From contig OZ076411.1 of the NCBI GenBank assembly GCA_964187785.1, positions 86,614,001 through 86,678,000 of the forward strand: a DNA stretch of 64,000 nt. Direction: 5' to 3'. The notes beneath the pieces were generated by a model. That model did no database searches. It was given only the letters and a program-made list of their open reading frames with translations, and was not told the DNA's origin. This document shows, piece after piece, positions 17,209-45,760 of this stretch; within the stretch, counting starts at the first letter, position 1; the number at the start of each line of letters is the position of its first letter. Origin of the DNA: Amphiscolops sp. MND2022 (lineage: Eukaryota). A program made the position numbers and the translations under genes.

Positions 17209-17213
17209 ATTTT

Positions 17214-23504: not shown

Positions 23505-24140
23505 TGAAATCCGGACCCGAAGAGGATCATACGTGCGGCCAGTCCATCGGCTATCATTATTCCTTCCGGCAGAAGTATCCCATGGAAACAACCAAGACAT
23601 CAACCAGTAACAAAGTCATCAACGAAAAAGAAACTTGCAGCATTGGATTGGTTTCAAAGTTAACAACAAAGACCAGAAGATAAAAACTAAAGATAAAGAT
23701 AGCAATCCTACATCCAGTTTTCATTTACCTCATCATCGTAACGTAACTATTCAACAACATCATTAACAGATTTTCAAGAAACGAAGTAATCGCATAAATT
23801 CCCTGTAAAACAAGTTTCATTATTTAAATGAGCTTGTTTTTTGGTTCTTCCAAAAACGTTTACACCCAGTTCCGTCCTTCTTCGTCACGCCGTTTTTGTT
23901 TATTCCGTATTTGTGTTATATTATGGGTACTGGGTCTTGTTTTTTGTCTCTACTGCTCTTCAATTGGAACTTGGTATGGATACCCGTCGTGTCAACTATT
24001 CAACTTAACCAAAGCTTAGTATAAATTCTTTTTTCAAAACAATGCCTTTTTTTCACTAAGTCATACAAATGCTACTTTGTACCCTGTATGTTTGCAGGAC
24101 CTCCACCAAGCTATTGAACCCGTTCAAGGGGGCCTGTATA

Positions 24141-24271
24141 TGTTGACAGTAAGAACTCCAAAACTTCATACTCTGAAACTCAAACTTTACTGACTTCTAT
24201 TTCCACCATTTTTCTAGTTTGTTCACTCTTTCTCAATTCCACTCTTCATTCAAGTTGCTTTACTCAAACCA
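24141..24271 (+). repeat. BEL/Pao 3' LTR (131 bp)
   Basis: Near-copy of 17077-17208; preceded by purine tract AAGGGGG at 24126-24132. Confidence 0.93.
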
Positions 24272-26658: not shown

Positions 26659-27970
26659 GTAAGCCAACTTAGCCTTCTACTTTGTGATAAAACTGTTAAA
26701 AACTAGTTGTGTTATTGTTCTAATTTCTTATAGTGAGTACATAAGAAGTCTAAGTTTCTTAACAGTGGTATCGTCTAAGTTCTAAGGTACTACTAGCTAG
26801 CTATTTCTATTTTCAATATCTCTGAGATCTCAGTTTGGTCCTTCTTCGAAGAGGAGACTCTTCTTCAGTTAAGATCCTATTTTTCTCCGAGTAGATATGT
26901 TCTACAATTTCATTAATGATTATAGTTATTTAAATTTTCTTCTAATCAATCAGAAGCGACAACAATAAGATGGGTTACTAATGACATTATCCCAAAATGT
27001 TGATTAGGTATTAATGAAGTTATCTTCAAGTGTCAGCAATCTAGTAAACTTCAATTATTTTCGAAATGGAGTGACATCTGTCTTTATAAAAGTGAGTGAT
27101 TTCAAATTTAGATAAATATTTGAAAGTTCTTGAGGACATGCATCATGTCATCACAGATAACAAAATTGTAATGAAAATGAGGATTTTGTTATTGGACTAC
27201 TATACCATTATGGGTGGGAAAGATTGCCAAATGTTCTTTTTTTTATACTAATTTTTGAGCAACCAAAAAATCAAAGGAACAAACCTTCCGCAAGTTTTTT
27301 TAAGGCAAGAACTCCACTGCCAGCCGTACGTGCTGTTGTCGTGAATGGTTTGCAGGATTCACAAGAATTTGAACCGTTTTTCAAAATGTGTCCAAATACC
27401 ATGTTCTCAGATGAAGTGACCTACTTTTAGCTCAAATATTTTAAAAAGTTATCAAGTAGCCTAAGTCAGGAAAAAAGCAAGAAAAGATATCGTGATGCGT
27501 CATATTTGTTTCGAATCAAAATCATTGAAACTCCGTTTACAAAAGTTATCAACCAACCAAAAATTTTTAACACTCACGCTCCTACTCAGTTTTACATCAC
27601 AGAAAATTGTTACCTCTCGTCTTAAATATTTTACGTTTCCCGTTTTTTCGCGTTTTGCGTTTTCATTCTACTAAGGGCTACTGAAAGGCCTAGCGATTAC
27701 CGCTGATTACTTTGACTGGTGACGGGGCCTCTAGAACCGGAGTTTTGAGCAGGAGTCCCGCACTAGGCCAATTTATTGGACACATAATGCCCCTTGTTTT
27801 TTGGAACTGTGCTGCTCTTTCCTGTTTCTTCAAATCCGAGGTTCCCCTTTTTGAGATTTAGCTATGAAAAAGACTTTTTGCTAGCGGAATACATCCCTAG
27901 GGTTATTTGGCATTGTGCGACGTACCTAAGGAAATTATTCACGAAAATATTTTTTGGAAAAACAATGCAG

Positions 27971-29461
27971 TGTCGCACGCATGGATAAATTTCAGTTCTA
28001 CTTTTTTACAGTTTCCTCTTTTAGAGGGGAATTCCAAATTTGTTATCCGTATTAGTCAGCTCAGCTGTTACAACATTTTGCAAAGTGCTTTTCAGACAAC
28101 TGTTGTTTTATTGAAGTAGAACAAGTAGAAAAGTCTCAATAACTTAATTTTTTGTAATACCGAAAAGAAAGTGCCTTGCGTGTACGTGCGAACAAAGGAA
28201 CTTGCGTGAGTAAGTGCAAGGCAGTGAATGTAAATGAGCTCTCTGAACTATAAAAAAAAAGCATATGTTAGCAAACTTGTTGAATTACATAAAAGAGCTG
28301 AACTTCAGGACATAATAAAATTCTTCAGACATAACAGTTTTTATTCAACTGTTTACAATATTCAGTCAACTCACCAAATTTATTTACCAGCAACAGAAGT
28401 AATAACTTAGCTATTTCAATCTAGGGCACAAATTGATGAATACATTTAGCATCGAAGGAAATTCATAGTAATTTCCTTTAGTTCGAAGAAAGTTTTTTAC
28501 GAAAAATTCAGTTTCGGTGTTGTAATAACTTAGACAACACTATTTAATTTTATAGTCTCTACTCCTTTTCTTTTAGGAATAGCATTAAGACTTTTTTGAA
28601 TATGGGAATGGTAAAGACAAATTGGTTAATAGGGGAAAACCGCAGAATTAAATCAGCGAAATTATTCTAAGATATAATTTTAACAACCGCAGAATTGAAT
28701 CAACGGAATTATTATAAGATAGAATCCGCGGAATTAAATCAGCGGAATTATTCTAAGATATAATTTAGTTAGAAAGAGGGAGAGTAAAAAAATCTCCTCT
28801 AAAAGAAAAAATCTAAGATATTTTCGACTCACCAAACTGGAGACCAAGTTGAATTGAAGAGAATTTTCTAAGATAGAAAATTCTGTTGGGGAATAGAGAA
28901 AAAGCAAAGATAAGTTTTTACTTGAGAGAAGGGAGAAAAGGAGGAAAGTTAGACTTTATAAGTCAGAGATAAGGCAAGTGCAAAGTAAGCAAAGAGAAAG
29001 TTGGGGAATAAGAGTCGAGGGAGAGAAGGGGAAGAGTATGTGTAAGAGAAGTGGAGGGATTGAGAAGTTGAGGAGAGAGAGAGCTGTAAGTTGAGCTCAG
29101 CCGTCCGGCGGGAAAGAATGAATCTCCAGCCTGTGCGCGCGGTATAAAAACAGTTCAGCACAGCTGTTGAAGTGCCTGGCCGGCATGTGTTGCATGCTAC
29201 CAATGGTAGCTCAGCTTTAAAATTCAAATATCCGCGGTAAGAAATAGAAATTTTCACTAGTGCAATTCCTTTCCCGTAGTATTCCATTACTTATTACTCC
29301 ACTTCGAGGCCGCCGCGTTATGGCCGCCGCCATATTTACTTCAACTTTCCACTCTCCACACAACGTTAGTTCAAGTTTTATGTTTCTCTTTGCACGTGTT
29401 ATTTTTTTATAATAGAAAGCGCCTTTTGGTGATTCGTTAGAGCGTTAGTCATAGCGCGACA
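27971..29461 (-). repeat. 3' LTR of the gypsy element
   Basis: Copy of 44270-45760 at offset 16299; minus-strand TATAAAG at 28954-28960 and AATAAA at 28340-28345 and 28107-28112. Confidence 0.97.
28640..28766. repeat. Three ~40-47-bp repeats inside the LTR (also 44939-45065)
   Basis: ccgcagaattaaatcagcg(a/g)aattattctaagata unit starting at 28640, 28687 and 28726. Confidence 0.8.
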
Positions 29462-29473
29462 GCTCACCCCCCT
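29462..29473 (-). promoter_or_regulatory. Polypurine tract
   Basis: Minus-strand AGGGGGGTGAGC directly abutting the 3' LTR start. Confidence 0.8.
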
Positions 29474-29575
29474 GGCAGGGTGAAAAAGCAACAACTTTAC
29501 TAGAGAAATTTGGGGTCAGGTCAAGAAAGAGGTATTAGGTGAAAGAGCATGAGGGAAGGGGGACATGTTTTAGCA

Positions 29576-30478
29576 CTAGGGTTTAGAAAAAAGGGGTCTG
29601 TCAAATTGAATTTGGATTATGACGGAGTCATTGTTTAGGAAGGCTTCTCTAAAGTTTACCAGGAGTTTTGTGTGCGCGATGAAGTCTTCTCTCATCAGTC
29701 CTGGGAGTGTGTAGTCGTTCTTGTGCGGGTCTTCATACTCTTCTGTTTTGGAGGGATAGGGAAAGGAGATGGACCATTTGTTGTTCTTGTCTTTTTGGTC
29801 TATGATTGAGACGATCAATTGTTGCTCGAAAGGCCACGTTCGTGGGAGAGTGAAGTCGCTGGGGTGTAGATCACAAGAAATTGAGGAATGGGTTCCGCGG
29901 AAGATGTTGGCGCCATAAGGGAATAGTCTGAGGGATATTTTGCAGCCGGTTAGGTGGGTAGTGTAGATAGGGCTAGTGAAGCTATTTTTGATGTTGTTCA
30001 ACGCATCATTCGGGGAGGTCTTTGCTTTTCTGTATAGTGTGGAAAAAGCGGGTATGTGCCAAAGGATGGGTTCACCGCTTCTTGCGTCTAATACGTTGGT
30101 TTTGTTGAGTAGGGCGCCTTGAAACTTGATTGTCGCTTGTAGATCGGATATTGTGAGTTCCAAGTGATTACATTTAGTCCGCGTTTCTTCTGTCAAGTTT
30201 TGGAGTTGTTTCATTTCACTAGCAAGCTTTGTTCTAGACTGTTTTATGTCGGTTATGGGGAACGATTTCCTTAGGATCGGGGTTACCTTTTCACTTTGTG
30301 GGCTAGTTGAGACTTCTAGTTCAGCGATCCATTTGTTCAATCTTTTGATTCCCTCGAGTGTCTCGAGGTCATCTTTATTCTCTGTCCTGGATAGAGGTGG
30401 CCAGTCGTTAGCTTTGGGGAAGTAAGGAGTGCTTTTTGGGATGAAGGGGATAGCGTCTGGGTTTAGCCTCCGATTCAT
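29576..30478 (-). CDS. PAM2 motif + coiled coil + TRAF-type MATH domain protein (300 aa), retroelement accessory gene
   Basis: N-terminal RRLNPDAIPFIP (PAM2 LNPxAxxFxP); heptad region LASEMKQLQNLTEE...LELTISDLQATI; TRAF-C motifs GEPILWHI, FTSPIYTT..GCKISLRLFPYG...RGTHSSI, WPFEQQLIVSIIDQ, FIAHTKL, FLNNDSVIIQIQFD. No RING or zinc fingers. Confidence 0.9.
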   Translation of the reverse strand: MNRRLNPDAIPFIPKSTPYFPKANDWPPLSRTENKDDLETLEGIKRLNKWIAELEVSTSPQSEKVTPILRKSFPITDIKQSRTKLASEMKQLQNLTEETRTKCNHLELTISDLQATIKFQGALLNKTNVLDARSGEPILWHIPAFSTLYRKAKTSPNDALNNIKNSFTSPIYTTHLTGCKISLRLFPYGANIFRGTHSSISCDLHPSDFTLPRTWPFEQQLIVSIIDQKDKNNKWSISFPYPSKTEEYEDPHKNDYTLPGLMREDFIAHTKLLVNFREAFLNNDSVIIQIQFDRPLFSKP

Positions 30479-31077
30479 TGTGCTGAGATGGCTCTTAGGG
30501 GGACCGTTAGTCTTTGTCCCTTTAGGGCTGGGTTCTCTATGGTGTACTCTTGTCTCTTGTTATCCCAGAAAACGATTTTCCAAGTTGAGAATTGTGGGAG
30601 GAGAGTGTATTTCAACTCTGTGTTGAATCTGGGTTTCTTAACGTGTCTGGCTCGTTTAGTGAAGTACTCCCGCTTGTGTTGTTTCTTCAGTGGCGTGTCA
30701 TCTGTTATTTTGTCATTCCATTGTTGTTGGTGTTTCCTGGGTAGTGCCCGTCTTATGTCTTTTCCGCCGAAGCGGGGTGGATGTTGGGGCGATCGAGGTG
30801 GATGTTGAGTTGATGGGATAGGCGCTACCTCTTCTGTAAATGACAGCGGAAAGGGGAGTTGTAGTGATGTCGTTGGAGAGGGTGTTGTTGTTAGGGCGCT
30901 TGGAATCGGAGAAGGAACTGTTGAGTCTGGGGGATCTAGGAGAAAGGTAATAGTTGTGGGAGAAGCAGTTGACAGCAGGTCAGAAGGTGATAAGGGTTCT
31001 ATCTGCAAGTCGTCTTCTAAGATAGAGTTAGGGATGTCGTCGTCCAGGTTTGGGAGGTCGAATAAGGGTTCTAAATT
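30475..31077 (-). CDS. AUG-less open frame (~200 codons): acidic/Pro-Thr-Ser-rich N-part, basic NLS-like segment, small beta-rich C-terminal domain; probably a spliced exon
   Basis: Open from 31077 to TGA 30475 with no Met (the track start at 31008 is TTG); tttag acceptors at 31078 and 31071; stop overlaps the next AUG (AUGA). Confidence 0.6.
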   Translation of the reverse strand, partial: NLEPLFDLPNLDDDIPNSILEDDLQIEPLSPSDLLSTASPTTITFLLDPPDSTVPSPIPSALTTTPSPTTSLQLPFPLSFTEEVAPIPSTQHPPRSPQHPPRFGGKDIRRALPRKHQQQWNDKITDDTPLKKQHKREYFTKRARHVKKPRFNTELKYTLLPQFSTWKIVFWDNKRQEYTIENPALKGQRLTVPLRAISAQ

Positions 31078-31108
31078 CTAAACGTAAACTACGAAATGAG
31101 ATAATAAT

Positions 31109-33256
31109 TCATATTGGAGCAACAAAGCTCTGTACCGAGGGATATAGTGATTCCTCTTTTTGTTTTAGGATTTGGAGTTCTACTCCTTTTTCTTCGTCTT
31201 CTGTTTTTACCCTTTTGTCTTCGATGCTATCCTCGAAAGGGGCCCGCGGGGTAAATACGGAAGTTAAAACAGAGGTAAAGAAAAGGTTATACGAAGCACT
31301 GAGCAAGGTTTTAGTGAAGCTCAGTGTGTTACCCGTAAGGTGACGAAGTTCGAAGTAGCGGAAGACTAGTACCGTGATATCTATGACGAACTTGATAAAA
31401 AGGAAAGCGCCAAAGTACGCTCCGCAGAGTTCTAGTACATAAGATATACTTCCGAATGTTTCGAGGAACTGATTTTTAAAGTAGTCGGGTGAAATCATTC
31501 CGTCGACATAGAAATCTGTACGAGGTGCGTAATACGCGAAGGATTCTGGTCCGCTGTGGGCCATGGAGGGTATGATGAGCTCTCTTGAGAACTTCTGGAG
31601 GGCATTACGTGATGCGGCGCTGATGAGGATGTTGTCCCAAAACTCGGAGAGTTGCTTGGGAGTGTACATTCCCGCGTCCTGTGATCCTGGGAAAGATCTG
31701 GTAATCATTGGCTGGATGTCTTTGGGTCCGAAGATAGCAGGCCGGTCCCGATGTTCGGGTGAAGGTGTAAGGGTGAACCAGGAGTCCTTGTCTTCCATGT
31801 CCAGTTGGAAGAGGTTCTTAATACGATCTGTGCAGTTTTGTACGTTCGCGTTAGGATATGTTTGTCGGGTTATGGGGTCTACAAAGGCGACCACTCCCTT
31901 GTAGAAGATTGGTATGCGGTCGTAGCATTGGTTCATCGTGTGAAGAGGTGAGTGGGATTCCGGGCAGTGGTAGAGCCATGCGAGGCTACCATCTGTGTTC
32001 AGGAACATCGAGCGATTTCCCGTGAGCATGTATCCGGCGAGTCGTGGGTTTTCCATGGATAACATCAGGATGGTAAGGATTTGTGTTCGTTCTTGCTCAC
32101 ATTGAGCTTTCAATAGCTGGATCTCTGAAGCTTCGAGTAAGCGGGTGCTCTCAAAGAAGAGATAATCTAACTTGGTTCCTTGGTGGAGTTCGTAATCCAT
32201 GTTGAGATAATGTGGTGTGTTGGGGTTGGAGTCGCTGGGGCCTCTGAAGAGGTGGAGTCTGCCATTACCAGAACCATCGTTGGGTGAGTAATATTGAAGT
32301 TTGGAGGTTTCTCCCATGGAGATGCCGAGTCGTCTGCCAGAAGTCATGTCGAAGCCACCAAATTGGGTCGAAACGTAGAGGGATTCGTAATTGGTAGGGT
32401 AGACATCATCGGGTTTGTTGCAGTATTTCTGTGGCCTGTTGTATATTTCGAATAGGAACTTGGTAGTGGAGTCGTTGCCGCTAACTATATAGTAGTTAGA
32501 GCCATGTTTGATCATATTCACTATTTCTTTTCTGTGGACTGCGAGCACGCAGTTATCTGGCTCTGCCCATGTATAGGCGTACGGGTCCAATGACGTGGTT
32601 TCGCAGCCGAGTTGTTCCAGGGGGCAGGGGAGAACCATCTGGAAGGGTGTGAGGATTTTCCCGTCTCTGGTTTTGACTGATAATTCTACGTCTTGAATAT
32701 GAGATTCGAAGGTTTCGCGTTTAATCCATCCGCCTGTCTTGCACTCATTACGGGTATCAGGGTCACGTACTCCATCCCAACTTTTTCCGTATTTGGCGTT
32801 TCTCGTCTGTACTTGTTTGACTCCTTTCTTAAATTTGAGGGGTTGTCCATGGATCATGACTTCTTTGCCTTCGCCCATGGCCTTACAGGTTTCGGGTGAC
32901 AAGGAAATATCGCTGGTGATTCCGTTGTGTAGGATTGACATACTGGAGTGGTCATTATGACCACAATGCCATTCTTCACTCTGGTGTTTCACACGGCACA
33001 TAGTAGCGTTGATAGTGCGACGAAAGTGTTTAGTGTATAACGTCACGCTAGCACGACTTACTTCTAAGTTTTCCGGGGCCACATTGCATTGCTCTACTTG
33101 ATTTAAGGCGTAGAGCTTATTTTGTGTCATTTCGCCGCAGTCGAAATGAGTTACTCGCAATTTTTTAGCAACGCTAGCGAGGTTTGGCGTTGAACGTTGT
33201 GAGTTCACAACGGGCGCGAAATTGGCGCATAAGAAGAGTAAGAAAAATAATTTCAT
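31109..33256 (-). CDS. env: Envelope glycoprotein, chuvirus-G-like / class III fusion type (715 aa)
   Basis: Signal peptide MKLFFLLFLCANFAPVVNS; HFDC..x..LYALNQVEQC; CRVK..x..HCG; MDYELHQGTKLDY; QCEQERTQILTILMLSMENPRLAGY; DGSLAWLYHCP; QCYDRIPIFY...FVDPITR...NC; C-terminal TM ISYVLELCGAYFGAFLFIKFVIDITVLVF. Confidence 0.88.
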   Translation of the reverse strand: MKLFFLLFLCANFAPVVNSQRSTPNLASVAKKLRVTHFDCGEMTQNKLYALNQVEQCNVAPENLEVSRASVTLYTKHFRRTINATMCRVKHQSEEWHCGHNDHSSMSILHNGITSDISLSPETCKAMGEGKEVMIHGQPLKFKKGVKQVQTRNAKYGKSWDGVRDPDTRNECKTGGWIKRETFESHIQDVELSVKTRDGKILTPFQMVLPCPLEQLGCETTSLDPYAYTWAEPDNCVLAVHRKEIVNMIKHGSNYYIVSGNDSTTKFLFEIYNRPQKYCNKPDDVYPTNYESLYVSTQFGGFDMTSGRRLGISMGETSKLQYYSPNDGSGNGRLHLFRGPSDSNPNTPHYLNMDYELHQGTKLDYLFFESTRLLEASEIQLLKAQCEQERTQILTILMLSMENPRLAGYMLTGNRSMFLNTDGSLAWLYHCPESHSPLHTMNQCYDRIPIFYKGVVAFVDPITRQTYPNANVQNCTDRIKNLFQLDMEDKDSWFTLTPSPEHRDRPAIFGPKDIQPMITRSFPGSQDAGMYTPKQLSEFWDNILISAASRNALQKFSRELIIPSMAHSGPESFAYYAPRTDFYVDGMISPDYFKNQFLETFGSISYVLELCGAYFGAFLFIKFVIDITVLVFRYFELRHLTGNTLSFTKTLLSASYNLFFTSVLTSVFTPRAPFEDSIEDKRVKTEDEEKGVELQILKQKEESLYPSVQSFVAPI

Positions 33257-33336
33257 TGTTGAAATTCTTCAGTCTGTTTTTGAATCAACCGTGTAATCGC
33301 TCCCTGTTAAAGAATCAGTTTAAGTGTTTAGTAGAG

Positions 33337-33788
33337 ACCGTAAAGAGGCAAGCCGTAATATCAAACCGGCAGCTTAGCTGGCACAACACTAAGCGGAGGT
33401 TAAAATTTTATAGTAGTAACCTCACTACTGTTAAAACGTGCCGAGGGGAACGATAAGTATTTTATTATTTCAGGGAAATAGGTGTGTGTTCCAGAAAGGA
33501 GGATTCGTAGTAAGGCCGTAAAAAGGCAAGTCGTAATATCAAACCGACAGCTTAGTGGGCACTAGCACTAAGCGGAGGTTAAAATTTTATAGTAGTAACC
33601 TCACTACTGTTAAAAAAGTGCCGAAGAGTAGGTTAATTATTGAAGCTTTAGTATATTTTATTATTGAGGATCCGTTATAAGGCCGTAAAAAGGCAAGCCG
33701 TAATATCAAACCGGCAGCTTAGTGGGCACTAGCACTAAGCGGAGGTTAAAATTTTATAGTAGTAACCTCACTACTGTTAAAAAGTGCC
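33337..33788 (-). ncRNA. Three tandem copies of a ~107-nt structured cis-RNA module (double pseudoknot plus two hairpins) upstream of env
   Basis: Copies at 33337-33442, 33515-33622 and 33682-33788; complementary segments AGUAGU/ACUACU, GAGGUU/AACCUC, GCUUAGUG/CACUAAGC, GGCAC/GUGCC, GCCG/CGGC; compensatory change GCCG/CGGC to GUCG/CGAC in the middle copy. Confidence 0.75.
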
Positions 33789-33833
33789 AAAATAGGAAGT
33801 TAAAAGAGACTAACTTCAACCATTGCTGAAAGT

Positions 33834-34178
33834 TCAATTGTAGTTGTCACGGATTGATTGTAGACTGGGAGAGGTTTTGTTTCGTCGTCTCAATTCGAGG
33901 AAGTCAATGAGCTTGTTGAGGAGGAACAGTGTTAGAGGGTGGATGTGGTCGAGATAGGCAATTTGCCTATATTCCTTTAGTGCGAGTGAGAGATCAGTAG
34001 CCTCTTGGGAGTTGGTGTCAACTGGGATGAGCCAATGTCCTGGGTTTTGTGGTCGGAGGCTATGGAGTTCGATTTGTAGTGAAGGTGCGTTTTCTTTCCA
34101 AGCGATAGAGAGAATTTCGAGAAGTGTATTTGTTTCAGGGTGGCGCCAGAGAAACTTGAGCTGAATCTTAAACATCAT
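33834..34178 (-). CDS. Small accessory ORF A4 (114 aa), unknown function
   Basis: ATG-initiated, overlaps the A3 stop by 11 nt, same A/C-rich sense-strand composition as gag-pol, shares a motif pattern with A1-A3. Confidence 0.65.
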   Translation of the reverse strand: MMFKIQLKFLWRHPETNTLLEILSIAWKENAPSLQIELHSLRPQNPGHWLIPVDTNSQEATDLSLALKEYRQIAYLDHIHPLTLFLLNKLIDFLELRRRNKTSPSLQSIRDNYN

Positions 34179-34563
34179 AAGTGTCGACTAGGCTGTGAAG
34201 GTATTTGATTCTAACTTCTTCTTCAAAGGGGTTGGAGGTGAGAGTGATGTCCATAAAGTAAACCAAGTCGTCGAAAGCCTTGTCTTTGAGGACTGCAGGG
34301 TGTTGGAGTATATATTGCTTGAACGATAGGAATAAGTAAGCGTATTCCTTGGAGCCGAAGTGAATAGGGAAGAGGACTAGAGCTTCTTTGTCTTCTGGTG
34401 TGAGTATACGCACTTGAATTGCAGAGGTAGTGATCTCGTAGAAGATTGACTGTATTTCGTATTGGCCCTTGAGTTGTATGGGGGTCCAAGGAACAGGAGG
34501 TTGAAACTGTGTGTGGAAGTAGTAATTATTTCCGCGGAACACGGCGACTGCGGGAGAGGACAT
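34168..34563 (-). CDS. Small accessory ORF A3 (131 aa), unknown function
   Basis: Starts in a TAATG stop-start overlap with A2. Confidence 0.7.
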   Translation of the reverse strand: MSSPAVAVFRGNNYYFHTQFQPPVPWTPIQLKGQYEIQSIFYEITTSAIQVRILTPEDKEALVLFPIHFGSKEYAYLFLSFKQYILQHPAVLKDKAFDDLVYFMDITLTSNPFEEEVRIKYLHSLVDTYDV

Positions 34564-34784
34564 TAAATGACTGACTTGGCTCTTGTGACGACTTCAGTAG
34601 GGGTGTTGTTATATAGCAAGCTCTCCAGTAGAGGGTAGATGGGTGATGCTGGCACACAAGTGTAGGTTTCACTTTCTTCTTCAGCTATTGCGTATGCTTG
34701 TATGATGATGTTTTGCGTTGAGGGTTCCTTCTGGATATCGGTGATTTGTGAAAGACGGTTGTCAATTTTGAAGATTATGATCAT
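34563..34784 (-). CDS. Small accessory ORF A2 (73 aa), unknown function
   Basis: ATG directly preceded by acceptor-like tatctcacag; ends in TAATG. Confidence 0.6.
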   Translation of the reverse strand: MIIIFKIDNRLSQITDIQKEPSTQNIIIQAYAIAEEESETYTCVPASPIYPLLESLLYNNTPTEVVTRAKSVI

Positions 34785-35029
34785 CTGTGAGATACTTCAG
34801 TGTTCACTGTTGTTCAAACATAGCAAATCTGAGAATGGAATCATCAGTTATTTCATTGCCTTTGGGAACTTATGTATTTGAAACATATGAACATGACCCT
34901 TTTTGGGGCACATGGTTGCATGCAGAAAAGTAAAGAATCGACATTGGTCTGTATTGTGTGATAGTGAGGTATATGATTAAATAAATAGGTGTTATAAATT
35001 TCTATTACTAGGTATTTATATAGTTTTAC

Positions 35030-35731
35030 ATGACTTTTGATAAGCACAATGTTGTGTTTAGAATGAGCAACAATCAGAACTTTTCGGACTACTACGAGGA
35101 GTCCTCGACCGACGAAGAGTCGGGGAATGGCCCGACAACTGTGTCTTCTAGTTCTTCTGCAGCTGGTCCGTCCTCTGCTGCTGTTAGTGCTGTGTCCTCC
35201 GCTTCGTCTTCTGCTGGTCGGCCCTCTACTGCTGTTAGTTCTGTGTCCCCTGCTTCTTCAGCAGGTCCGTCCTCTAGTGGTGGGTCGTTCGTGGCGGTTG
35301 TGGCCCCGAGGACTGACAGTATTGTGCCTCAAGCGCCTGCTACTATTGCCCGGGGAGAGCTGGAGAACCCGGCTGAGCAGAGCTTTATGGGGCTCTATAC
35401 CCGCCGAGACGTGAACCGCCTGGAAAACTGGGCGTCTCTAACCAGTTCTCTTCGGGGGACTCCAGGGTTCTCTGTCTCGGGGCCTCCCGGTCCCAATTCA
35501 TTATTTAGTTTCATGCGGGCTAACCTGGGGGCCCGTTGGGAGCAGACCCTATTGTCCCCTCTTGGTGAAATCATAATTTTCCAGTTGCGAGCCTACATAA
35601 ACGGCTTTTCGCAACTGACCAGTTTCGAGAGGGGACAGTGGTCCCGTCTGTATTCTTTGTGGACCATGGGAGAGCGGGCGGCTCAGCTGCGGCGCTTGGC
35701 GGAGCGAGGAGGGTTCCTGGAGATTGAGTAG
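35030..35731 (+). CDS. Antisense accessory ORF (222-233 aa; Ser/Ala-rich N-half, predicted helical C-domain)
   Basis: 702-nt open frame opposite to all other element ORFs; second ATG at 35063 directly follows tttag. Confidence 0.65.
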   Translation: MTFDKHNVVFRMSNNQNFSDYYEESSTDEESGNGPTTVSSSSSAAGPSSAAVSAVSSASSSAGRPSTAVSSVSPASSAGPSSSGGSFVAVVAPRTDSIVPQAPATIARGELENPAEQSFMGLYTRRDVNRLENWASLTSSLRGTPGFSVSGPPGPNSLFSFMRANLGARWEQTLLSPLGEIIIFQLRAYINGFSQLTSFERGQWSRLYSLWTMGERAAQLRRLAERGGFLEIE

Positions 35732-35888
35732 GCGTACATCGCCTCTCATCTCCAGGAAATTACTATTTTTCTATGCTTCTGTGCTTGTGGCTTTTCGTAA
35801 GTCATGTTCGGGATTGCACAAAAAATATCGATAAACTAAAGTAAAGTAAATTAATGGTAATACATCGTTAATAGGTTAAATGTGCCGG

Positions 35889-36275
35889 CTAGGAGCTAGG
35901 TGAGGAAATAGTGGAGCAGCAGAATAGGTCCTTCTGAGTATTAGGTGGTGAAGGTTGTAGGTCAGGAATTAGGGTAGGCATGTAGGATAAGAGTTCTTCT
36001 AGGATAGGGTCGTGATGGTTGACTGCATGGTATGCTAGGTGTTGATATAGTTGAGCAAACGTTTTTGATTCTGGGTGAACATGAAGATTTGATTTTCGGG
36101 GCGTAGGTTGTTTGTGGGGGCTCGGGTCTGGGTCGTTGGAGTAGAAGCAAATTCTAACTAGTTTGTTTGTGTAGGTCCAGTAGATTTTTGTGATTGTAAC
36201 GTGTAGAACGTTTAAAGATTGGAGTTCTCGTGGAACTTGCCATGGTAGGTTTAGGTAAACTTTATGACAAGGCAT
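35889..36275 (-). CDS. Small accessory ORF A1 (128 aa), unknown function
   Basis: ATG 8 nt after the pol stop; shares a motif pattern with A2-A4. Confidence 0.65.
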   Translation of the reverse strand: MPCHKVYLNLPWQVPRELQSLNVLHVTITKIYWTYTNKLVRICFYSNDPDPSPHKQPTPRKSNLHVHPESKTFAQLYQHLAYHAVNHHDPILEELLSYMPTLIPDLQPSPPNTQKDLFCCSTISSPSS

Positions 36276-36283: not shown

Positions 36284-39200
36284 TTAGGCTTTGTAGCCTA
36301 CTCGAGTTTTTTGTCGAAGTATGGACAATGGTGCTGGTTGATTGGGTTGTGCTCGCTGATAGCGGGGATTTCTCTCGACGTGACTTGCCACCGCTCGTCT
36401 GAGTTCTTGTAGGGGTGTCAATGATTTAGTCGAAGTCGTCGGAGTGGTAGTCAAGGGTTCGGGTGTTATTTGTTGCGTCAGTGTTTGGATAGGAGTAGTT
36501 GAACCAGGAGGACGGGATGTAGTAGGCTGATCCGGAGTTGTTGGTGTTCCCAACCGGTGATTTTCTGGGGAAATAATACCAGAGTCGGTGCTCTGGGGAG
36601 TTCTCACTCGTTTTTGTGCGGTGGTCTGTCTTTGTTGGTTTCGGACTGGTAAAATGCAGAGATCCCCGAGTATCTGTGGTTCTGAAACATTAAGTCGTTC
36701 TATTCTTCCTTTGACAAAATTGTTATAGAAATCCGTGTCTCCACGGTAGGGAGTTGTGTATTCTTCTATAAGAGGGGGGAGTGTTTCCTCTTTGGGAAAG
36801 TATTCTATTAAATGATTTCTATGGACAGTTCGGAGATTTTCGGGGTTCTGATCGTCTTTTATTTGGTATGTTGTGTTGGTGATTCTCTTGGTAACCGTAA
36901 ACGGTCCTAATCGCAGTTGTTGAAGTTTTTGACTTTTGGAGAGGTCTTTCCGATGGTTTTCTAACAAAACCTTTTGTCCGATGTTGAGATGGCTGCCTAG
37001 TTTAAATCTGTTTCTGTAGGCATGAGATCGAGCTGTTTGTTTTCTGCATTTTTCGTAAGTGGACGAATAGATTTTCTTGAAGGCGGTCTCTCTTTCAAGC
37101 AGGTTTTGAGATAGTTGAGGTCTTAATAGTCCATTCAGCAGTTCGTTTTTAACTTGGTTTTCGCTGTGGCAGTGAGGAGGCAGTCCGTTGCAGAACTGTG
37201 ATCTGCAATTCTTGTTTTTATTACGGTATAGACCCAACTTAAGACTCATAGGTATCTGTGGTTTATTGCAGAAGACTATTTCGTATGGTGTCTTTCCAGT
37301 GGTATAGTTGACGCTTGTGTTGTGGGCAAATGCGAATTTAGCAGCTAGTTGGGCCCAGTTGTTTCCTGAGTCGTTTAAGAAGTTTCTCCAGTACCTTGCA
37401 ATGTGTTGGTTTTGGGTTTCCACTTTTCCGTTAGTCCAGGGTGAGTGTGCAGTTCTTGGCCGGAGAGTGATGCCTAACTCTTTAGTCCAATTGACGAATT
37501 CAGTGTTTACGAAAGCCGTTCCTCTATCGTGTATGATAGACTGCGGTATCCCATAGTGCATAATCCATTTTTCCATAGCGTTGATTGTTGACTGTGCACC
37601 TGTGTCTCTAACTGGGTATGCCATCAAGTAGCGTGAAAATGCGTCGATGATGAGGAGGCAATGTGAATTTCCACGACTGGGAGGGTTGAGTGGTCCCTTG
37701 TGATCGATATGAACAGTTCTGAATACTTGGGTCTCGGTTTCACAGTCCTCCAGTGGGACTTCGTAATTTCTTCTTTGTTTGGATTTGTTAGATTGGCAGC
37801 TAACGCAATCTTGTGTGAGGGCACAAATCCAGTCGTGCATCCCGGGCCAGTAGTAGAATCTTTTAGCATTTAGGTAGGTTTTCTCGGCTCCCATATGGCC
37901 TCCGAGGTCGTTGTAGTGTCCTAATCGGAAGCAGGCGAGAAATAAGGAGAGTGGTAAGCATATTCGAAGATTTTCTTCTTCCGTCTTATCTGTAGGTTCA
38001 TTGTAGCACAGTAGGTTTCCGTTTTCTTCTATGGTCAATCTATCAAACTCTTGGGAATAGCGCATGAGTCCTTTAGAGTGTTGTAATTCTGGTGATTTTG
38101 GCGTAGGCCTGTTTCCGGTTTGTATCCATCGTCGAACCACACTGAGCACCGGGTCATTGATCTGTTCTTGTAAGATTGTTGTGACGTCTAGATCCACTTC
38201 TTTTGATATTTTGTCGAGTTGACTGACGAGCTCTCGGGCTGGGGTCTTGTGTTTTTCCGTTGAATTTGTAGGTAGACTGAGGTGTTCTATTGCCTTTGCA
38301 TTTTCGGGAATACCTGTGTTACGTGCGGTGAGATCTTCAGTGTTGAGCTCGTAGTTGGTCTCGTTTACTTCATGACTTTGGTTGTCTGTGCAGGCTTCAT
38401 CATCTGCATCGCTATTGATGGAGCTGTAAGTATTCTGAGACGAATCGGAAGTGCTATCCCTTGTCCCGGATCTGATTTTTAGCTCTGAAAATTTTCCTAG
38501 TTCTCTTCCAGCGTCGAGACAACTCTGTGCTGACTCTATTTTCGGCAGGTTAGGTTCCTCGTAGATATTGTTAACTGTGAAGTTATTTCCATCGTTTTGT
38601 AGGTGAAGAATTTTTCGTTCATCTCCTTTTTCGTACAGGATGGGGTAGAAATCGTTTTTTGACGTTTCTTCGTTTTCTTCGTGTTTTATTTTGTAGTGTA
38701 TTTGGGTTCCATGCTCGTCGAAGAAGTGAATATCGTTCGGTAGGATTTTGTGACTGAGTTGATGTTTTTTGTGTTCTTCTATCGATACGTTTCTGCTGAG
38801 TATATCAGGGAAGGCTAAATTGCTTCCTGGGGTCCAAATTATCTTGAGATTTGGGAATTTAGAGATTATTACTTGGTACCTGAAGAAACGCGGTGAAACT
38901 TGTCCTTTTCGTCCCCAGAGATAAAGAATTGGTTTGTGGTCACAATATAAGTAAATTGGAAAGGGAGATCCAATGATATAGTGTTCGTAGGTTTGTAATG
39001 CTGAGACTATTCCACATAGTTCTCTATGTAGAGTAGACATTTTTTGTTCTTCTTTTGCGAAGACTCTGGAATTGAAAGAAATGATCCGTTTCCCTTCTGG
39101 AAATTGTTGTATGAGGATACATCCTGTCCCTACGTTGGAAGAGTCGACGTGTATATGAAAGGGATATTTTGTTGAAGGTACTGCAAGAACTGTGTCTTCG

Positions 39201-41791
39201 CTGATTCTTTTCTTTATTTGTTGGAAGAGGTCTTCATGTTCTTGGTTCCAACAGAAATTTGTATCCTTTTTTGTGAGTTCGTAAAAGGGTCGACTATCGA
39301 CGTGAAGGTTCTTGATGTAGCAGCTGTAGAAACCTAAGGCTCCCAAGAAGCTTTTCACTTCGGTTTTGGTTTTTGGTGATTTGAGATTATGTAGGTCTCT
39401 TACTCGTTTAGCTACGGGTTGTATTCCTTCTGCTGCAATCACATGTCCCAAAAACTTGACTTTCCTCAAGAAGAAGAGTGTTTTGTCAGGTGCCGCTTTT
39501 AGTCCCGCTTTCCGTAGTAGGTTATGGTATTCTTGAATCACTGTGAACATTTCTTGTTTACTTTTCGCTTGCATCAACGTGTCGTCTATGTAGGTGATTG
39601 CTTGTTTCTTTTTAATGAGAGGTTCGAAGTGAATTGTCATCATTCGGCTAAAGAAGCTTGGTAACCCTTTAAGTCCGTAGAATCCTCTGGTGAAGGTGTA
39701 TTGTTTCCCGCCTATGATGAAGCTTGTAAGTTTTTGTGTAGGCTCGTCTAATGGGACTTGGTGAAATGCACAGGAGAGATCACTTACTGAGAAGATGTTC
39801 CCGTTGATTAGTGTCATTATGGTTTGGATCGGTTCTAAGGGCCAGGAGTAGTTTGTTAGATCCGTCACTGAATTTAGGTATCTTGCGTCTATGATCAGTT
39901 TTACATAGTCGTGTTTTGGTTGTAGTATAATAGGATTTACGAATAAGGATCCCATTTCGTCGTCATCGCCCATCTCTCTGATAATATCGGCGTCTTTGAG
40001 TTGTGTGAGTAGCTTCTCTAACTTTTCTCTTAGGTGAAGTGGTACTTTGCTGGGTCTCTGTCTCTTCAGGATTGCTCCAGGTTCGAGTTTGATGTTAAAT
40101 TTCTGTCTGGTTTTTCCTACGTCGAATTTGTGTTGGGAGTATACATCTCTCGCATCCATTAGTTGGTCTATTAGGAGCACAAGTTCCTCGTCAGTAAGGT
40201 CTGAGTAGCGAAAGTCGAATTCTTTGATGTATTGCACTGCTTCTTTGTTCTGGTACTGAAGGTAATACTCGATCAGTCTTTCGTTGTCTTCTTTTTGCCT
40301 GAAGATTTTAAATTGCTCATCGCAGGGTGGTTGACAAGACTTTGCGTCACTCGTAAAGTCTGTCTCCAGCTCTCTATGTTTAAGGTGAAATTGCTCGGAA
40401 AATTGTTGTATCTCGTCTTCCAGCGCGTATTCGGGGTCTCCTCTCGTAGTCATAGCATAGACGTCTAGTTCATTTCTTGTATAAATTCGGAGTTGTATTT
40501 CCGAGTAGGCAAAAACATCTTGAATAATTTGTGTCACATCTTGCCATTGGAAATCTTCTAGTTCTGACGCTTCTCGTAACATAGAAATGGTCTTGATACA
40601 ATTCATTTTGGCGTGTGCTTTTAGAGTCTCTAGCGTTTGGACTAAGATTTGTGGGTCGATTTTGTCTTTTGATTTAGCTTTTGTGATTAGGACGTATATG
40701 AATCGTTTTAGATTCATGTCCCAGTAAGGTATTGTATCCCCTTTGAGTGGTTTCTGTTTTGCGCAAGATTCTTTTAACAAGGGTATGTTCGTTAGGATTT
40801 CTTTCGAGAAGCCTTTGGCTGGCTTCAGATCTGCCGGGACAAAGATCATGATGGAGTCGGGTCTGCTGAGGATTGTAGTAGAATTTCCTCCTTCTATTCT
40901 GATGCAATCGTTCATATCTTGTGAAGGGATGGTGGAGTGCAACAGGAAACAGTCATTGTATTCTTCGTTTTCGTTTAGGATAGCGTAGGCGAGTTCCGTA
41001 GGGTTTCTAACTTGGTATTTTGGAATTTCTTGGTCTAATACGTCGAGCAGAGAGTATCCAATAGTTCCTTTTACTAGGGTGATTGTATGGTTTTTGTTAT
41101 TTTCCATGACGATTGGCAAAGTCTTCTCAAATCTTGTACAAAGGACATTTATAAAATTTAGTCCTGTAGAGACTGCTTTTCTGTTGGGTAGGAACGTAGA
41201 TCCGGGAGGAAAGGAGTTCTTGGGGTTTTCCGGTGCAAATTTGTAACATCTTGTCGTCTTTGGTTCGATATACATTGAGTGAGGAATTCGGACTGAGAGT
41301 ATTTGTGATACGTAGGGGTAACATTTGTTGAGTTGTAGACTGCCATAGCAGAAAGTATTTATAGGTCTTTTGAGTTCTATGCCAGGAAGATCAAAGTGTA
41401 TTTTGTTAACTTGTTCTTGACAGAAGTTCATTCCAAGGAGGTTTTGGGTCTTCATCTCTGTTATCCAGACTGTCAGTGGGAAGTTATGTTGTCCATCGGA
41501 ATCGTAGTAGAGTTTAAGGGTGATGTATCCCATCATAGGGATGATCTGCCCAGAGTAGTTCCGTGTTGTGTTGTTACTTCTGCTGAGTTCGAGGTCTTGT
41601 TGAAATTGACAGAGTTCTCTAAAGGTCCTGTAGTTAATGATTGAAGATGTTGCCCCAGTGTCTAGTAGAAATTCGATTTCTAAGCCACTATCTTTTTGTG
41701 AGTCTCCGGCAGCAAAATAATAAAGATTAAGACTAAATTTTAGTGGGGCAGTGCTGCTGTTACGGTTTTTCGGAGACCTTAATAGTTTAAA
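36284..41791 (-). CDS. pol: Pol (protease, macrodomain, RT, RNase H, integrase with GPF/Y tail), expressed by -1 frameshift
   Basis: Frame open from 41791: FLLDTGATSS (PR, near 41660), RT DLSCAFHQ / FYGL / YIDD / FLGH, RNase H HVDSS / RELCG / YCDHKP, IN HYNDLGGHMG..CVSC, HIDHKGP, IHDRGTAF, NGKVE, LGPFTV. Confidence 0.96.
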   Translation of the reverse strand, partial: FKLLRSPKNRNSSTAPLKFSLNLYYFAAGDSQKDSGLEIEFLLDTGATSSIINYRTFRELCQFQQDLELSRSNNTTRNYSGQIIPMMGYITLKLYYDSDGQHNFPLTVWITEMKTQNLLGMNFCQEQVNKIHFDLPGIELKRPINTFCYGSLQLNKCYPYVSQILSVRIPHSMYIEPKTTRCYKFAPENPKNSFPPGSTFLPNRKAVSTGLNFINVLCTRFEKTLPIVMENNKNHTITLVKGTIGYSLLDVLDQEIPKYQVRNPTELAYAILNENEEYNDCFLLHSTIPSQDMNDCIRIEGGNSTTILSRPDSIMIFVPADLKPAKGFSKEILTNIPLLKESCAKQKPLKGDTIPYWDMNLKRFIYVLITKAKSKDKIDPQILVQTLETLKAHAKMNCIKTISMLREASELEDFQWQDVTQIIQDVFAYSEIQLRIYTRNELDVYAMTTRGDPEYALEDEIQQFSEQFHLKHRELETDFTSDAKSCQPPCDEQFKIFRQKEDNERLIEYYLQYQNKEAVQYIKEFDFRYSDLTDEELVLLIDQLMDARDVYSQHKFDVGKTRQKFNIKLEPGAILKRQRPSKVPLHLREKLEKLLTQLKDADIIREMGDDDEMGSLFVNPIILQPKHDYVKLIIDARYLNSVTDLTNYSWPLEPIQTIMTLINGNIFSVSDLSCAFHQVPLDEPTQKLTSFIIGGKQYTFTRGFYGLKGLPSFFSRMMTIHFEPLIKKKQAITYIDDTLMQAKSKQEMFTVIQEYHNLLRKAGLKAAPDKTLFFLRKVKFLGHVIAAEGIQPVAKRVRDLHNLKSPKTKTEVKSFLGALGFYSCYIKNLHVDSRPFYELTKKDTNFCWNQEHEDLFQQIKKRISEDTVLAVPSTKYPFHIHVDSSNVGTGCILIQQFPEGKRIISFNSRVFAKEEQKMSTLHRELCGIVSALQTYEHYIIGSPFPIYLYCDHKPILYLWGRKGQVSPRFFRYQVIISKFPNLKIIWTPGSNLAFPDILSRNVSIEEHKKHQLSHKILPNDIHFFDEHGTQIHYKIKHEENEETSKNDFYPILYEKGDERKILHLQNDGNNFTVNNIYEEPNLPKIESAQSCLDAGRELGKFSELKIRSGTRDSTSDSSQNTYSSINSDADDEACTDNQSHEVNETNYELNTEDLTARNTGIPENAKAIEHLSLPTNSTEKHKTPARELVSQLDKISKEVDLDVTTILQEQINDPVLSVVRRWIQTGNRPTPKSPELQHSKGLMRYSQEFDRLTIEENGNLLCYNEPTDKTEEENLRICLPLSLFLACFRLGHYNDLGGHMGAEKTYLNAKRFYYWPGMHDWICALTQDCVSCQSNKSKQRRNYEVPLEDCETETQVFRTVHIDHKGPLNPPSRGNSHCLLIIDAFSRYLMAYPVRDTGAQSTINAMEKWIMHYGIPQSIIHDRGTAFVNTEFVNWTKELGITLRPRTAHSPWTNGKVETQNQHIARYWRNFLNDSGNNWAQLAAKFAFAHNTSVNYTTGKTPYEIVFCNKPQIPMSLKLGLYRNKNKNCRSQFCNGLPPHCHSENQVKNELLNGLLRPQLSQNLLERETAFKKIYSSTYEKCRKQTARSHAYRNRFKLGSHLNIGQKVLLENHRKDLSKSQKLQQLRLGPFTVTKRITNTTYQIKDDQNPENLRTVHRNHLIEYFPKEETLPPLIEEYTTPYRGDTDFYNNFVKGRIERLNVSEPQILGDLCILPVRNQQRQTTAQKRVRTPQSTDSGIISPENHRLGTPTTPDQPTTSRPPGSTTPIQTLTQQITPEPLTTTPTTSTKSLTPLQELRRAVASHVERNPRYQRAQPNQPAPLSILRQKTRVGYKA
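40480..40910 (-). other. TARG1/OARD1 (Poa1p)-like macrodomain inserted in Pol between PR and RT
   Basis: RFIYVLITKAKSKDKIDPQILVQTLETLKAHAKMNCIKTISMLREASELEDFQWQDVTQIIQDVFAYSEIQLRIY aligns by eye with the C-terminal half of human TARG1 (RYIYYLITK...LQKSLEAMKSH...[34 protein letters not shown]). Confidence 0.82.
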
Positions 41792-43233
41792 GGGCGAATA
41801 TCGGCGACAGAGTTCACCGAGTAATCTGTTTCGAGAAACTGTACGGTGTTATGTCTTCCCATGTCGTTAGTTCTAGGGAACCTTTGTTCGTAGGTTTGAG
41901 TGGGGGTGTTTGGTCTTTCGTTTCTGTTTTGTGGTCTATTAAAGACTGAGTTATTCCTTGGTGGAAGAGGCTGTATGTTGCGGTTGAAGGAGTTAGGCTG
42001 GTCTCTGTTGAAGCTGAACGGAGATCTTGCTCTTTGGGGCCCAGGAGAAACACTTCTGGAATTGTTAGAATTGTTTAGAAAAGGTCTTCTTCCTTCTTGT
42101 GAAAATCTTTGGTTACCAGGACTGAATCTTGTATTCATAGGTCGGCGTTCTGGGTTGAAATTTCTTCTTTGTGGTCTATCATATTGGTTCCGGGCAGGGT
42201 TTGACTGCATGGCTCCAGCAAGTGCTAGTTGATGTGCCACAGCCATATGTTTTCTGATTTCTGAATCGGGTAGTCTAGTTTGGAATCTAGAACCATGTCC
42301 AGGTCCAGTTCTTTTGTTGTAATCGTTGGTGAAAGTTATTCGTCTCTCTGGGTTGGATTCATTTTGAACTTTCTTGATTTCTTCATCTCTCATCTTCTTT
42401 CTGCACCAGTTAGGCGTATGCCCATTTGTTCGGCAGTAGCTGCAAAACCTGGTGGCCATTCTACGTCCTGTTGCGTTCGGATCAACAGTTTTCTCTATTG
42501 CATTGATAGTGTTGTTCGTCTGTTCTTTGATTTGTAGCTTGATTCCTTTGATGTCTTCTCGCAATTCTTGGATGAGTGGGTCTGCGTGTGATTCTCCACC
42601 GGTGAGAGAGGTAGTTACTGTGTAAGAAAGGTCTTTGTTTATTACAGCTTGAGAGAACTGCTCCCAGGTTGCATTCGGATGATCCATTAAGTATTCGTGT
42701 GCCTTTTCCCTCAGTTTCGGGGGTCGAAGGCCTCTCAGTGAGTAGTCAATGCACCTCTGTCTTCTTTGTCTGTCTTGTGCTGCTCTTTCGGCGTCTCTAT
42801 TGTTCTGTGCGACTCCGGCTAGATCATCTGGCCATCCTTTTCCGACTACTATTTTAATTCTGTGTAGGAAGTTCTTTATTTCTTCTCCATCTCGTCTGAT
42901 GACGTGTTCGGCTTCCATTCTGTGTCTAAATTTGTTTCTGCCATCTGCGAATCGCGTTATGAACCTCTCTCTGATTTCTACCCAAGTGTTAGCGTCTGTG
43001 ATGCTGGTCTCGAACCACTCTGCTGCGGGTCCTCTTAATAGTGTAGCAAAATAGGATTTTCTTCTGAAGTTGTAGTCATCAAGTGCTGGTCCGTTGGCCG
43101 GGGTATCACCGTGAGAAAACCGGAACTTCTTTTCAATGAGCTGTATGAATTGTTCAGGATCTTGATCTGGGTCTGTTCCTGTGAATTGGTCTCGGCCTAG
43201 GTCTGGATAAGCCAAGTAATTTTGCGCAGCCAT
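41779..43233 (-). CDS. gag: Gag (484 aa) with one CCHC knuckle
   Basis: Retrotransposon capsid-like LRGPAAEWF...W.EIRERFITRF; CSYCRTNGHTPNWC (CX2CX4HX4C); Arg/Asn/Pro-rich tail. Confidence 0.93.
   Translation of the reverse strand: MAAQNYLAYPDLGRDQFTGTDPDQDPEQFIQLIEKKFRFSHGDTPANGPALDDYNFRRKSYFATLLRGPAAEWFETSITDANTWVEIRERFITRFADGRNKFRHRMEAEHVIRRDGEEIKNFLHRIKIVVGKGWPDDLAGVAQNNRDAERAAQDRQRRQRCIDYSLRGLRPPKLREKAHEYLMDHPNATWEQFSQAVINKDLSYTVTTSLTGGESHADPLIQELREDIKGIKLQIKEQTNNTINAIEKTVDPNATGRRMATRFCSYCRTNGHTPNWCRKKMRDEEIKKVQNESNPERRITFTNDYNKRTGPGHGSRFQTRLPDSEIRKHMAVAHQLALAGAMQSNPARNQYDRPQRRNFNPERRPMNTRFSPGNQRFSQEGRRPFLNNSNNSRSVSPGPQRARSPFSFNRDQPNSFNRNIQPLPPRNNSVFNRPQNRNERPNTPTQTYEQRFPRTNDMGRHNTVQFLETDYSVNSVADIRPLNY
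41785..41791 (-). promoter_or_regulatory. -1 ribosomal frameshift heptamer U_UUA_AAC
   Basis: Gag reads CCT TTA AAC TAT TAA; the heptamer is in the correct X_XXY_YYZ phase and the -1 frame is the open pol frame. Confidence 0.8.
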
Positions 43234-44269: not shown

Positions 44270-45760
44270 TGTCGCACGCATGGATAAATTTCAGTTCTAC
44301 TTTTTTACAGTTTCCTCTTTTAGAGGGGAATTCCAAATTTGTTATCCGTATTAGTCAGCTCAGCTGTTACAACATTTTGCAAAGTGCTTTTCAGACAACT
44401 GTTGTTTTATTGAAGTAGAACAAGTAGAAAAGTCTCAATAACTTAATTTTTTGTAATACCGAAAAGAAAGTGCCTTGCGTGTACGTGCGAACAAAGGAAC
44501 TTGCGTGAGTAAGTGCAAGGCAGTGAATGTAAATGAGCTCTCTGAACTATAAAAAAAAAGCATATGTTAGCAAACTTGTTGAATTACATAAAAGAGCTGA
44601 ACTTCAGGACATAATAAAATTCTTCAGACATAACAGTTTTTATTCAACTGTTTACAATATTCAGTCAACTCACCAAATTTATTTACCAGCAACAGAAGTA
44701 ATAACTTAGCTATTTCAATCTAGGGCACAAATTGATGAATACATTTAGCATCGAAGGAAATTCATAGTAATTTCCTTTAGTTCGAAGAAAGTTTTTTACG
44801 AAAAATTCAGTTTCGGTGTTGTAATAACTTAGACAACACTATTTAATTTTATAGTCTCTACTCCTTTTCTTTTAGGAATAGCATTAAGACTTTTTTGAAT
44901 ATGGGAATGGTAAAGACAAATTGGTTAATAGGGGAAAACCGCAGAATTAAATCAGCGAAATTATTCTAAGATATAATTTTAACAACCGCAGAATTGAATC
45001 AACGGAATTATTATAAGATAGAATCCGCGGAATTAAATCAGCGGAATTATTCTAAGATATAATTTAGTTAGAAAGAGGGAGAGTAAAAAAATCTCCTCTA
45101 AAAGAAAAAATCTAAGATATTTTCGACTCACCAAACTGGAGACCAAGTTGAATTGAAGAGAATTTTCTAAGATAGAAAATTCTGTTGGGGAATAGAGAAA
45201 AAGCAAAGATAAGTTTTTACTTGAGAGAAGGGAGAAAAGGAGGAAAGTTAGACTTTATAAGTCAGAGATAAGGCAAGTGCAAAGTAAGCAAAGAGAAAGT
45301 TGGGGAATAAGAGTCGAGGGAGAGAAGGGGAAGAGTATGTGTAAGAGAAGTGGAGGGATTGAGAAGTTGAGGAGAGAGAGAGCTGTAAGTTGAGCTCAGC
45401 CGTCCGGCGGGAAAGAATGAATCTCCAGCCTGTGCGCGCGGTATAAAAACAGTTCAGCACAGCTGTTGAAGTGCCTGGCCGGCATGTGTTGCATGCTACC
45501 AATGGTAGCTCAGCTTTAAAATTCAAATATCCGCGGTAAGAAATAGAAATTTTCACTAGTGCAATTCCTTTCCCGTAGTATTCCATTACTTATTACTCCA
45601 CTTCGAGGCCGCCGCGTTATGGCCGCCGCCATATTTACTTCAACTTTCCACTCTCCACACAACGTTAGTTCAAGTTTTATGTTTCTCTTTGCACGTGTTA
45701 TTTTTTTATAATAGAAAGCGCCTTTTGGTGATTCGTTAGAGCGTTAGTCATAGCGCGACA
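44270..45760 (-). repeat. 5' LTR of the gypsy element
   Basis: 1491 bp, no differences from 27971-29461 noticed by eye; followed by TSD GCAG. Confidence 0.97.

Follow-up and report, generated by a model that had tools for sequence, protein, structure and literature searches.

A TRAF gene with an N-terminal PAM2-type motif in an env-bearing Gypsy-type retroelement of Amphiscolops

Results

An env-bearing retroelement with a TRAF gene in last position

The window, by which we mean the whole 64,000-nucleotide stretch of contig OZ076411.1 (Amphiscolops sp. MND2022) that was analyzed, contains a Gypsy-type gag-pol-env element of 17.8 kb, at positions 27971-45760 (Table 1). The identical LTRs and the target-site duplication indicate a recent insertion. 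The genes run in the order gag, pol, four small ORFs, env, a 200-codon ORF, and a TRAF ORF. Together with the LTRs, the target-site duplication, gag, and env, the order PR-RT-RH-IN within pol identifies this as a Ty3/Gypsy element with an env gene. The small ORFs between pol and env had no family match in Pfam.

The 200-codon ORF had no match in Pfam or the PDB, but it is conserved: its C-terminal ~70 amino acids have 26 invariant columns across families A-D of related elements (the window's element belongs to family A), and its dN/dS is 0.06-0.23. The ATGA by which this ORF overlaps the start of the TRAF gene is also present in the subfamilies and in family B. The pyrimidine-rich tract near the beginning of the ORF may act as a splice acceptor, judging from its sequence.

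Table 1. Features of the window (positions are those of the 64,000-nucleotide stretch)
Feature	Position	Strand	Details
BEL/Pao-type element	17077-24271	plus	DUF1759, DUF5641, protease; ~130-bp terminal repeats and 61-bp tandem array
Target-site duplication	27967-27970 and 45761-45764		4 bp
3' LTR	27971..29461	minus	1491 bp, TG...CA
PAM2-TRAF accessory ORF	29576..30478	minus	300 aa from ATG; single unbroken frame, intron-less
TRAF-C (MATH) domain	29606..30064	minus	residues 139-291
Long helix, equivalent of TRAF-N coiled coil	30104..30256	minus	residues 75-125
PAM2-type motif RRLNPDAIPFIP	30437..30472	minus	residues 3-14, in a tail predicted to be disordered
ATGA overlap	30475..30478	minus	stop of upstream ORF and start of TRAF ORF
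Upstream ORF without ATG	30475..31077	minus	200 codons; directly precedes the TRAF gene
Pyrimidine-rich tract with tandem AG	31071..31095	minus	splice-acceptor-like; same place in families A-D
env	31109..33256	minus	715 aa; Monjiviricetes-type fusion glycoprotein, E 5.1e-31
Tandem repeat	33329-33803		~170 bp
Two small overlapping ORFs	33834..34563	minus	114 and 131 aa; purifying selection
Small ORF between pol and env	35030-35731	plus
Small ORF between pol and env	35889-36275	minus
pol frame	36284..41848	minus	protease-like motif, RT, RNase H, integrase
gag	41779..43233	minus	484 aa; Pfam E 3.8e-4, below cut-off
Slippery-site-like heptamer	41794		near the end of gag
Primer-binding-site-like TGG	44266
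5' LTR	44270..45760	minus	identical to 3' LTR
Tandem array	53845-54624		~97-bp units

The protein is a TRAF without a RING

With only 114 bases between its end and the 3' LTR, the TRAF ORF is the last internal ORF of the element, and the preliminary description was right to call it an intron-less ORF in that position. Its product matches two Pfam families above their cut-offs, MATH_2 (E 8.9e-12, profile positions 3-135 of 136) and TRAF-mep_MATH (E 1.3e-10), and its top sequence matches in the PDB are TRAF5, TRAF4, TRAF3, and TRAF2. An AlphaFold model, built on a 21-row alignment, has a mean pLDDT of 74.6 and a pTM of 0.54. In this model, an unstructured stretch (residues 1-34) precedes a shorter helix (35-57), a longer one (75-125), and a sandwich of eight strands. 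When the model was searched with Foldseek, TRAF domains filled the top ranks (best E 1.2e-11). The longer helix aligns with the coiled coil of the donor family described below. Thus, the profile and structure searches that had been proposed as a check returned MATH/TRAF, in agreement with the original reading of a coiled coil followed by a complete MATH domain. TRAF domains are trimers (PMC6125299), and by analogy we predict that this protein forms one as well.

No RING or zinc finger was matched in the 300-residue protein by Pfam, so the protein can be described as a RING-less TRAF; whether a RING was lost is considered with the candidate donor gene.

TRAFs bind receptors by hot spots in strands 3-7 (PMC6125299); in the canonical adaptors TRAF1/2/3/5 these are R-x-Y, a serine triad, and FxRP...SGC. 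In the window protein, R184 is kept, a Tyr is replaced by Phe, and both the serine triad and the FxRP motif of the groove are gone; the loop concerned (residues 244-256 of TRAF-C) has low model confidence. More broadly, the groove motif (F/Y-x-R/K-P) is kept in canonical TRAFs, in the candidate donor, and in families C, D, E, F, and G, and is lost in families A and B only. The donor lacks the serine triad too and retains FQRP.

The N-terminal motif is conserved

PAM2 motifs are recognized at five structural positions (L3, P/V5, A7, F10, and P12) and have N/S at position 4, with E preferred at position 9 (PMC2854688). Residues 5, 6, 7, 9, 12, and 14 of the TRAF protein fit L3, N4, P5, A7, F10, and P12, and there is a P at PAM2 position 9. 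The motif scores 16.1 bits against the Pfam PAM2 model (PF07145), whose cut-off is 20. Three of the four related N-termini that were scanned score 20.0-20.7 bits; the scores of individual relatives are 20.0 (L031), 20.7 (L048), 20.5 (L039), 16.7 (L036), and 15.3 (P0050, from family F).

The pattern L[NS]xxAxxFxP arose in 155 of 200,000 shuffles of the TRAF protein. Among the 127,996 residues that the window yields in six frames, it occurs just once, in the TRAF ORF, and within 1.7 million residues from 144 loci it is confined to the start of these TRAF proteins. The motif is carried by 39 of 42 loci of families A and B. Two of the other three are broken copies, and the third (L037, from family B) is otherwise open but has lost the motif's Phe. 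Not included in this count are L038, whose start is masked; L042-L045, which are missing the 5' part; and L048-L050, which repeat loci that were already counted.

Across five subfamilies, mean identity is 0.76 over residues 1-14 versus 0.25 over residues 15-24. Furthermore, the fixed residues of the motif are encoded by differing synonymous codons in different subfamilies, which implies that the constraint acts on the peptide. Family B, with a protein 36% identical to the window's, also has the motif, as does family F, which comes from another assembly. Family F comprises 352 clusters; of the 120 proteins listed, 79 extend to the motif position and 67 have the motif at their N-terminus. P0050, which was found by a profile search over 1.84 billion representatives, has it at residue 3. 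This protein is not in the host genome, where its best matches are 34-44% identical. Among the first 167 proteins collected, the motif was present in 12 (P0050 and 11 proteins like those of A and B) and in none of the canonical TRAFs. The PAM2-type motif noticed in the preliminary description is, then, a conserved N-terminal feature.

It is quite improbable that the motif only looks like PAM2 and is kept for another partner or for the needs of the coupled start site. That the window, family B, and family F all score below the threshold would fit that explanation, as would the motif's location directly after the stop-start junction. However, the positions that are fixed across three families whose linkers cannot be aligned are exactly those that contact MLLE, and the codons beneath them have changed synonymously.

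The host genome encodes two MLLE domains. One is PABP-like and has the signature motif; the other adjoins a HECT domain. A UBR5-like exon, at L052:1126-1650, has matches to both MLLE and HECT. The affinities of PAM2 motifs range from 300 nM to 300 uM, and host PAM2 proteins all use one shared site (10.64898/2026.01.10.698208). With so wide a range, a match to the motif may mean weak binding.

Intact copies and purifying selection

The TRAF protein has 132 scored matches in the host genome. Forty-seven of these span residue 1 to at least residue 295 without stops, including 19 at 98-100% identity and 28 at 57-68%; the other 85 are partial or contain stops. In all 30 loci taken from the top of the match table, env, the upstream ORF, and the TRAF gene occur in that order. 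Broken TRAF copies often have a broken env as well. Three near-identical, internally deleted copies (L043-L045) have nothing left but fragments of env and the final third of TRAF, which suggests a non-autonomous derivative that spread.

Between subfamilies, the dN/dS of the TRAF gene is 0.12-0.18 (dS 1.2-2.6), and that of the TRAF-C domain alone is 0.10-0.14; no pairwise value is near 1. The corresponding values for env are 0.03-0.04, with 95-96% identity versus 58-67% for TRAF. Pairs within a family gave ratios of 0.46-3.3, but these rest on only 8-13 differences, which is too few to read.

We also considered whether the gene might be neutral cargo of a successful element. The 85 partial or interrupted matches would be expected if so, but the 47 open ones, the low dN/dS (with dS saturated), and the gene's constant place in four families make this explanation hardly tenable, and we rejected it. 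The ORF is not decaying cargo, an outcome that the preliminary description had named as one that would count against its reading.

The TRAF gene was probably captured from a host mRNA

The candidate donor is a single-copy TRAF gene on contig C3 of the same genome, and other assemblies hold close relatives of it. Two GT-AG introns interrupt it, 595 and 407 bases long. In families C and F, the sequence runs colinearly and without a break across both intron sites, and in the window protein it does so across the second. The exons of the donor share 37-47% identity with family C; the window lineage is 29% identical to the donor exon. When we searched ~100 kb upstream of the donor for a RING exon, we found none, and just one zinc-finger-like stretch. 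So, although the protein does lack a RING, this search gave no support to the idea that a RING was lost.

Families C and D (L055, L057, L060, L080, L083-L096) are env elements with the TRAF gene in the same place and no PAM2 motif. The TRAF part is therefore useful by itself, as these elements thrive without the motif. In the search with the TRAF profile that revealed them, 150 of 440 candidates were scored, and C and D account for 28 of the 30 loci retrieved.

Phylogenetic placement, which the preliminary description had suggested with host TRAFs, gave two answers. In a 43-row tree, A and B join F, G, and two further proteins (support 99/95), and this group lies within the clade of the donor gene (99/98), separate from the canonical TRAFs. 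In a 26-row tree with few outgroups, A and B lie beside other host TRAFs and outside the donor clade, a placement that carries a long-branch warning. AU tests did not reject placing A and B outside the donor clade (p 0.29), nor did they reject a single capture for all of the env-element TRAFs (p 0.32). Profile scores were 185.7 for families F and G, 158.3 for the donor, and 153.7 for canonical TRAFs.

Overall, the capture of a TRAF by way of host mRNA, as originally proposed, fits a donor-like gene whose introns are absent from the element genes. From these sequence comparisons, such a capture is well supported for the donor clade and likely for the fast-evolving lineage of the window.

The link between family F and env is a single env-TRAF fusion protein (P0090), and blastp found no match when the frame that precedes the A start was compared with the one before the F start. 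Searches of viral contigs gave 75 pattern matches with no relative among them, and searches of metagenome contigs gave 50 loci of generic TRAFs (25-48% identity), none with the motif or env.

Possible roles of the protein

Because the receptor-groove motif is lost in A and B while TRAF-C is still constrained, we favor a two-ended adaptor. We give a little less than an even chance to the specific reading in which a trimeric adaptor grips PABP-coated mRNAs through the predicted binding of PAM2 to MLLE. The preliminary description had proposed either an immune antagonist or an adaptor that links mRNPs to innate signaling, and the mRNP adaptor is the better of these two options.

As we picture it, this accessory gene, which selection maintains, likely derives from the spliced mRNA of a host TRAF. 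A spliced sub-genomic mRNA would carry the upstream ORF and the TRAF ORF, which the stop-start overlap would couple. The TRAF trimer would then display three PAM2 tails to the MLLE domain of the host's poly(A)-binding protein, would gain avidity on poly(A) tails coated with PABP, and would compete there with the host's own PAM2 proteins, which govern termination and deadenylation. At the other end, the remodelled TRAF-C would hold a partner other than a canonical receptor peptide. The element might gain control over the fate of mRNPs, so that its own RNA is stable and translated; alternatively, it might gain by tethering a host response factor to mRNPs. Points against this reading are the window's score below the Pfam cut-off, the P at PAM2 position 9, the wide span of PAM2 affinities, the success of families C and D without the motif, the lost Phe of L037, and the second MLLE protein of the host, which offers an alternative target.

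That second protein could instead be the one bound. In this alternative, the PAM2 tail recruits the UBR5-like HECT ligase by way of its MLLE domain, in place of a RING, and proteins held by TRAF-C become ubiquitinated. The MLLE domain of human UBR5 binds PAM2 peptides, such as that of PAIP2, and has targets in common with PABPC1 (PMC11572963); a second MLLE next to a HECT domain is encoded in this genome. Also, the motif occupies the place that the effector RING has in TRAFs. However, nothing in the motif favors UBR5 over PABP, and PABP is more abundant than UBR5. PABP also greatly outnumbers its PAM2 partners (10.64898/2026.01.10.698208). We consider hijacking of the ligase to be improbable.

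A third explanation, which we consider unlikely but less so, is that the protein is a decoy of the host's TRAF pathway: it would co-assemble with the donor TRAF or take its partners, and the PAM2 tail would park TRAF partners on mRNPs or granules, damping a defense or cell-death signal. There is precedent in TRAF2, which becomes a dominant negative when it is cut at the N-terminus (PMC2196258). Four families of env elements, as well as the unrelated multi-copy family E, carry TRAFs of this host lineage, a sign that it is worth copying. Both PAM2 and the FxRP motif are present in family F, the genome has 29 matches to TIR domains, and TRAF diverges faster than env does. On the other hand, A and B have no groove motif, the window lineage is only distantly similar to the donor exon, the donor was found without a RING, and dN/dS between subfamilies never approaches 1. 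Searches of the host genome for Rel-homology and TNFR domains had no matches, although a blank in such a search is not the same as absence. The more specific proposal, a RING-less dominant negative of TNFR/TLR/NF-kB signaling, is weakly supported, given the lost groove motif, the donor without a RING in the stretch searched, and the two blank searches, though TIR domains are present.

The adaptor and the ligase readings share a core, to which we give about an even chance: the captured TRAF would be either a trivalent clamp on PABP or a recruiter of an MLLE ligase, and would rewire either mRNA fate or ubiquitination.

Relation to known systems

As cargo, a TRAF is of a known kind, given the MATH_TRAF_C domain of planarian Burro and the RING-bearing TRAF of ISKNV. 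Burro (GYPSM1) is an env-bearing Gypsy-type element in which MATH_TRAF_C is a separate accessory ORF in one species; otherwise, MATH is in or before a gag-env-pol polyprotein of 5,000 amino acids, along with BIR, BCL2, and ankyrin (PMC6431247). In the window's element, the TRAF is a separate last gene after env, and it groups with the host lineage's own TRAF. It also has a PAM2 tail, and the description of Burro that we consulted mentions none (PMC6431247). The env-carrying Ty3/gypsy elements known as ancient errantiviruses have the same gag-pol-env order, LTRs, multiple copies, and viral fusion glycoprotein (PMC13524379). The window's element has at least five extra ORFs, whereas the main text of the errantivirus survey never mentions TRAF, MATH, PAM2, or accessory (PMC13524379). 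ISKNV ORF111L, like the window protein, is a TRAF of ~300 amino acids with a coiled coil and MATH, but it is encoded by a DNA virus, keeps its RING, and promotes apoptosis via TRADD; the account of it that we consulted reports no PAM2 (PMC3352826).

RING-less TRAFs are known from cells (PMC7586133). TRAF1 and truncated TRAF2 are RING-less like the window's TRAF and have kept the receptor hot spots (PMC6125299, PMC2196258). The window lineage differs from them in that the hot spots are lost and a PAM2 tail has been added. Cellular PAM2 proteins, such as eRF3, PAIP1/2, ataxin-2, TOB, and PAN3, have a 12-residue motif in a disordered region (PMC2854688), as is the case here, but the window's motif is encoded by a mobile element and is joined to a predicted trimer. 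The PABPC-interacting element of LINE-1 is another case of a retroelement protein that engages PABP; in contrast to the motif described here, it is predicted to bind RRM1, not MLLE, and is part of a replication protein, not an accessory one (10.1101/2025.10.09.680815). In the literature we searched, which excludes most subscription journals, we found no published PAM2-TRAF fusion and no element-encoded PAM2.

Complex retroviruses are typified by accessory genes directed against the host, and little is known of such genes in the env-bearing retroelements of invertebrates. If the motif does bind, it would be an element-encoded PAM2 ligand, and PABP or the UBR5-like ligase would be a point of conflict. 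The derived states are all present: TRAF alone (C and D), PAM2 with an intact groove (F), and PAM2 with a remodelled groove (A and B). As the likely donor, these states, and recent copies all exist, the birth of the gene should be traceable.

A TRAF family outside env elements

Family E is a multi-copy TRAF of the donor lineage that lies outside env elements (L128:2590-3690, with further loci at L129-L135, L138, L139, L142, and L144). Of the two intron positions, only the last is retained, and the gene is flanked by inverted arms of ~2.1 kb. Neighboring ORFs resemble what we take to be an HUH-type endonuclease and a PC4-like protein, a resemblance without support from Pfam. Family E probably arose when a DNA element made a second capture. 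The repeated uptake of one atypical host TRAF points to a pathway by which this group of hosts may hold mobile elements in check, and, if our reading is true, this adaptor was taken up by mobile elements of two differing classes.
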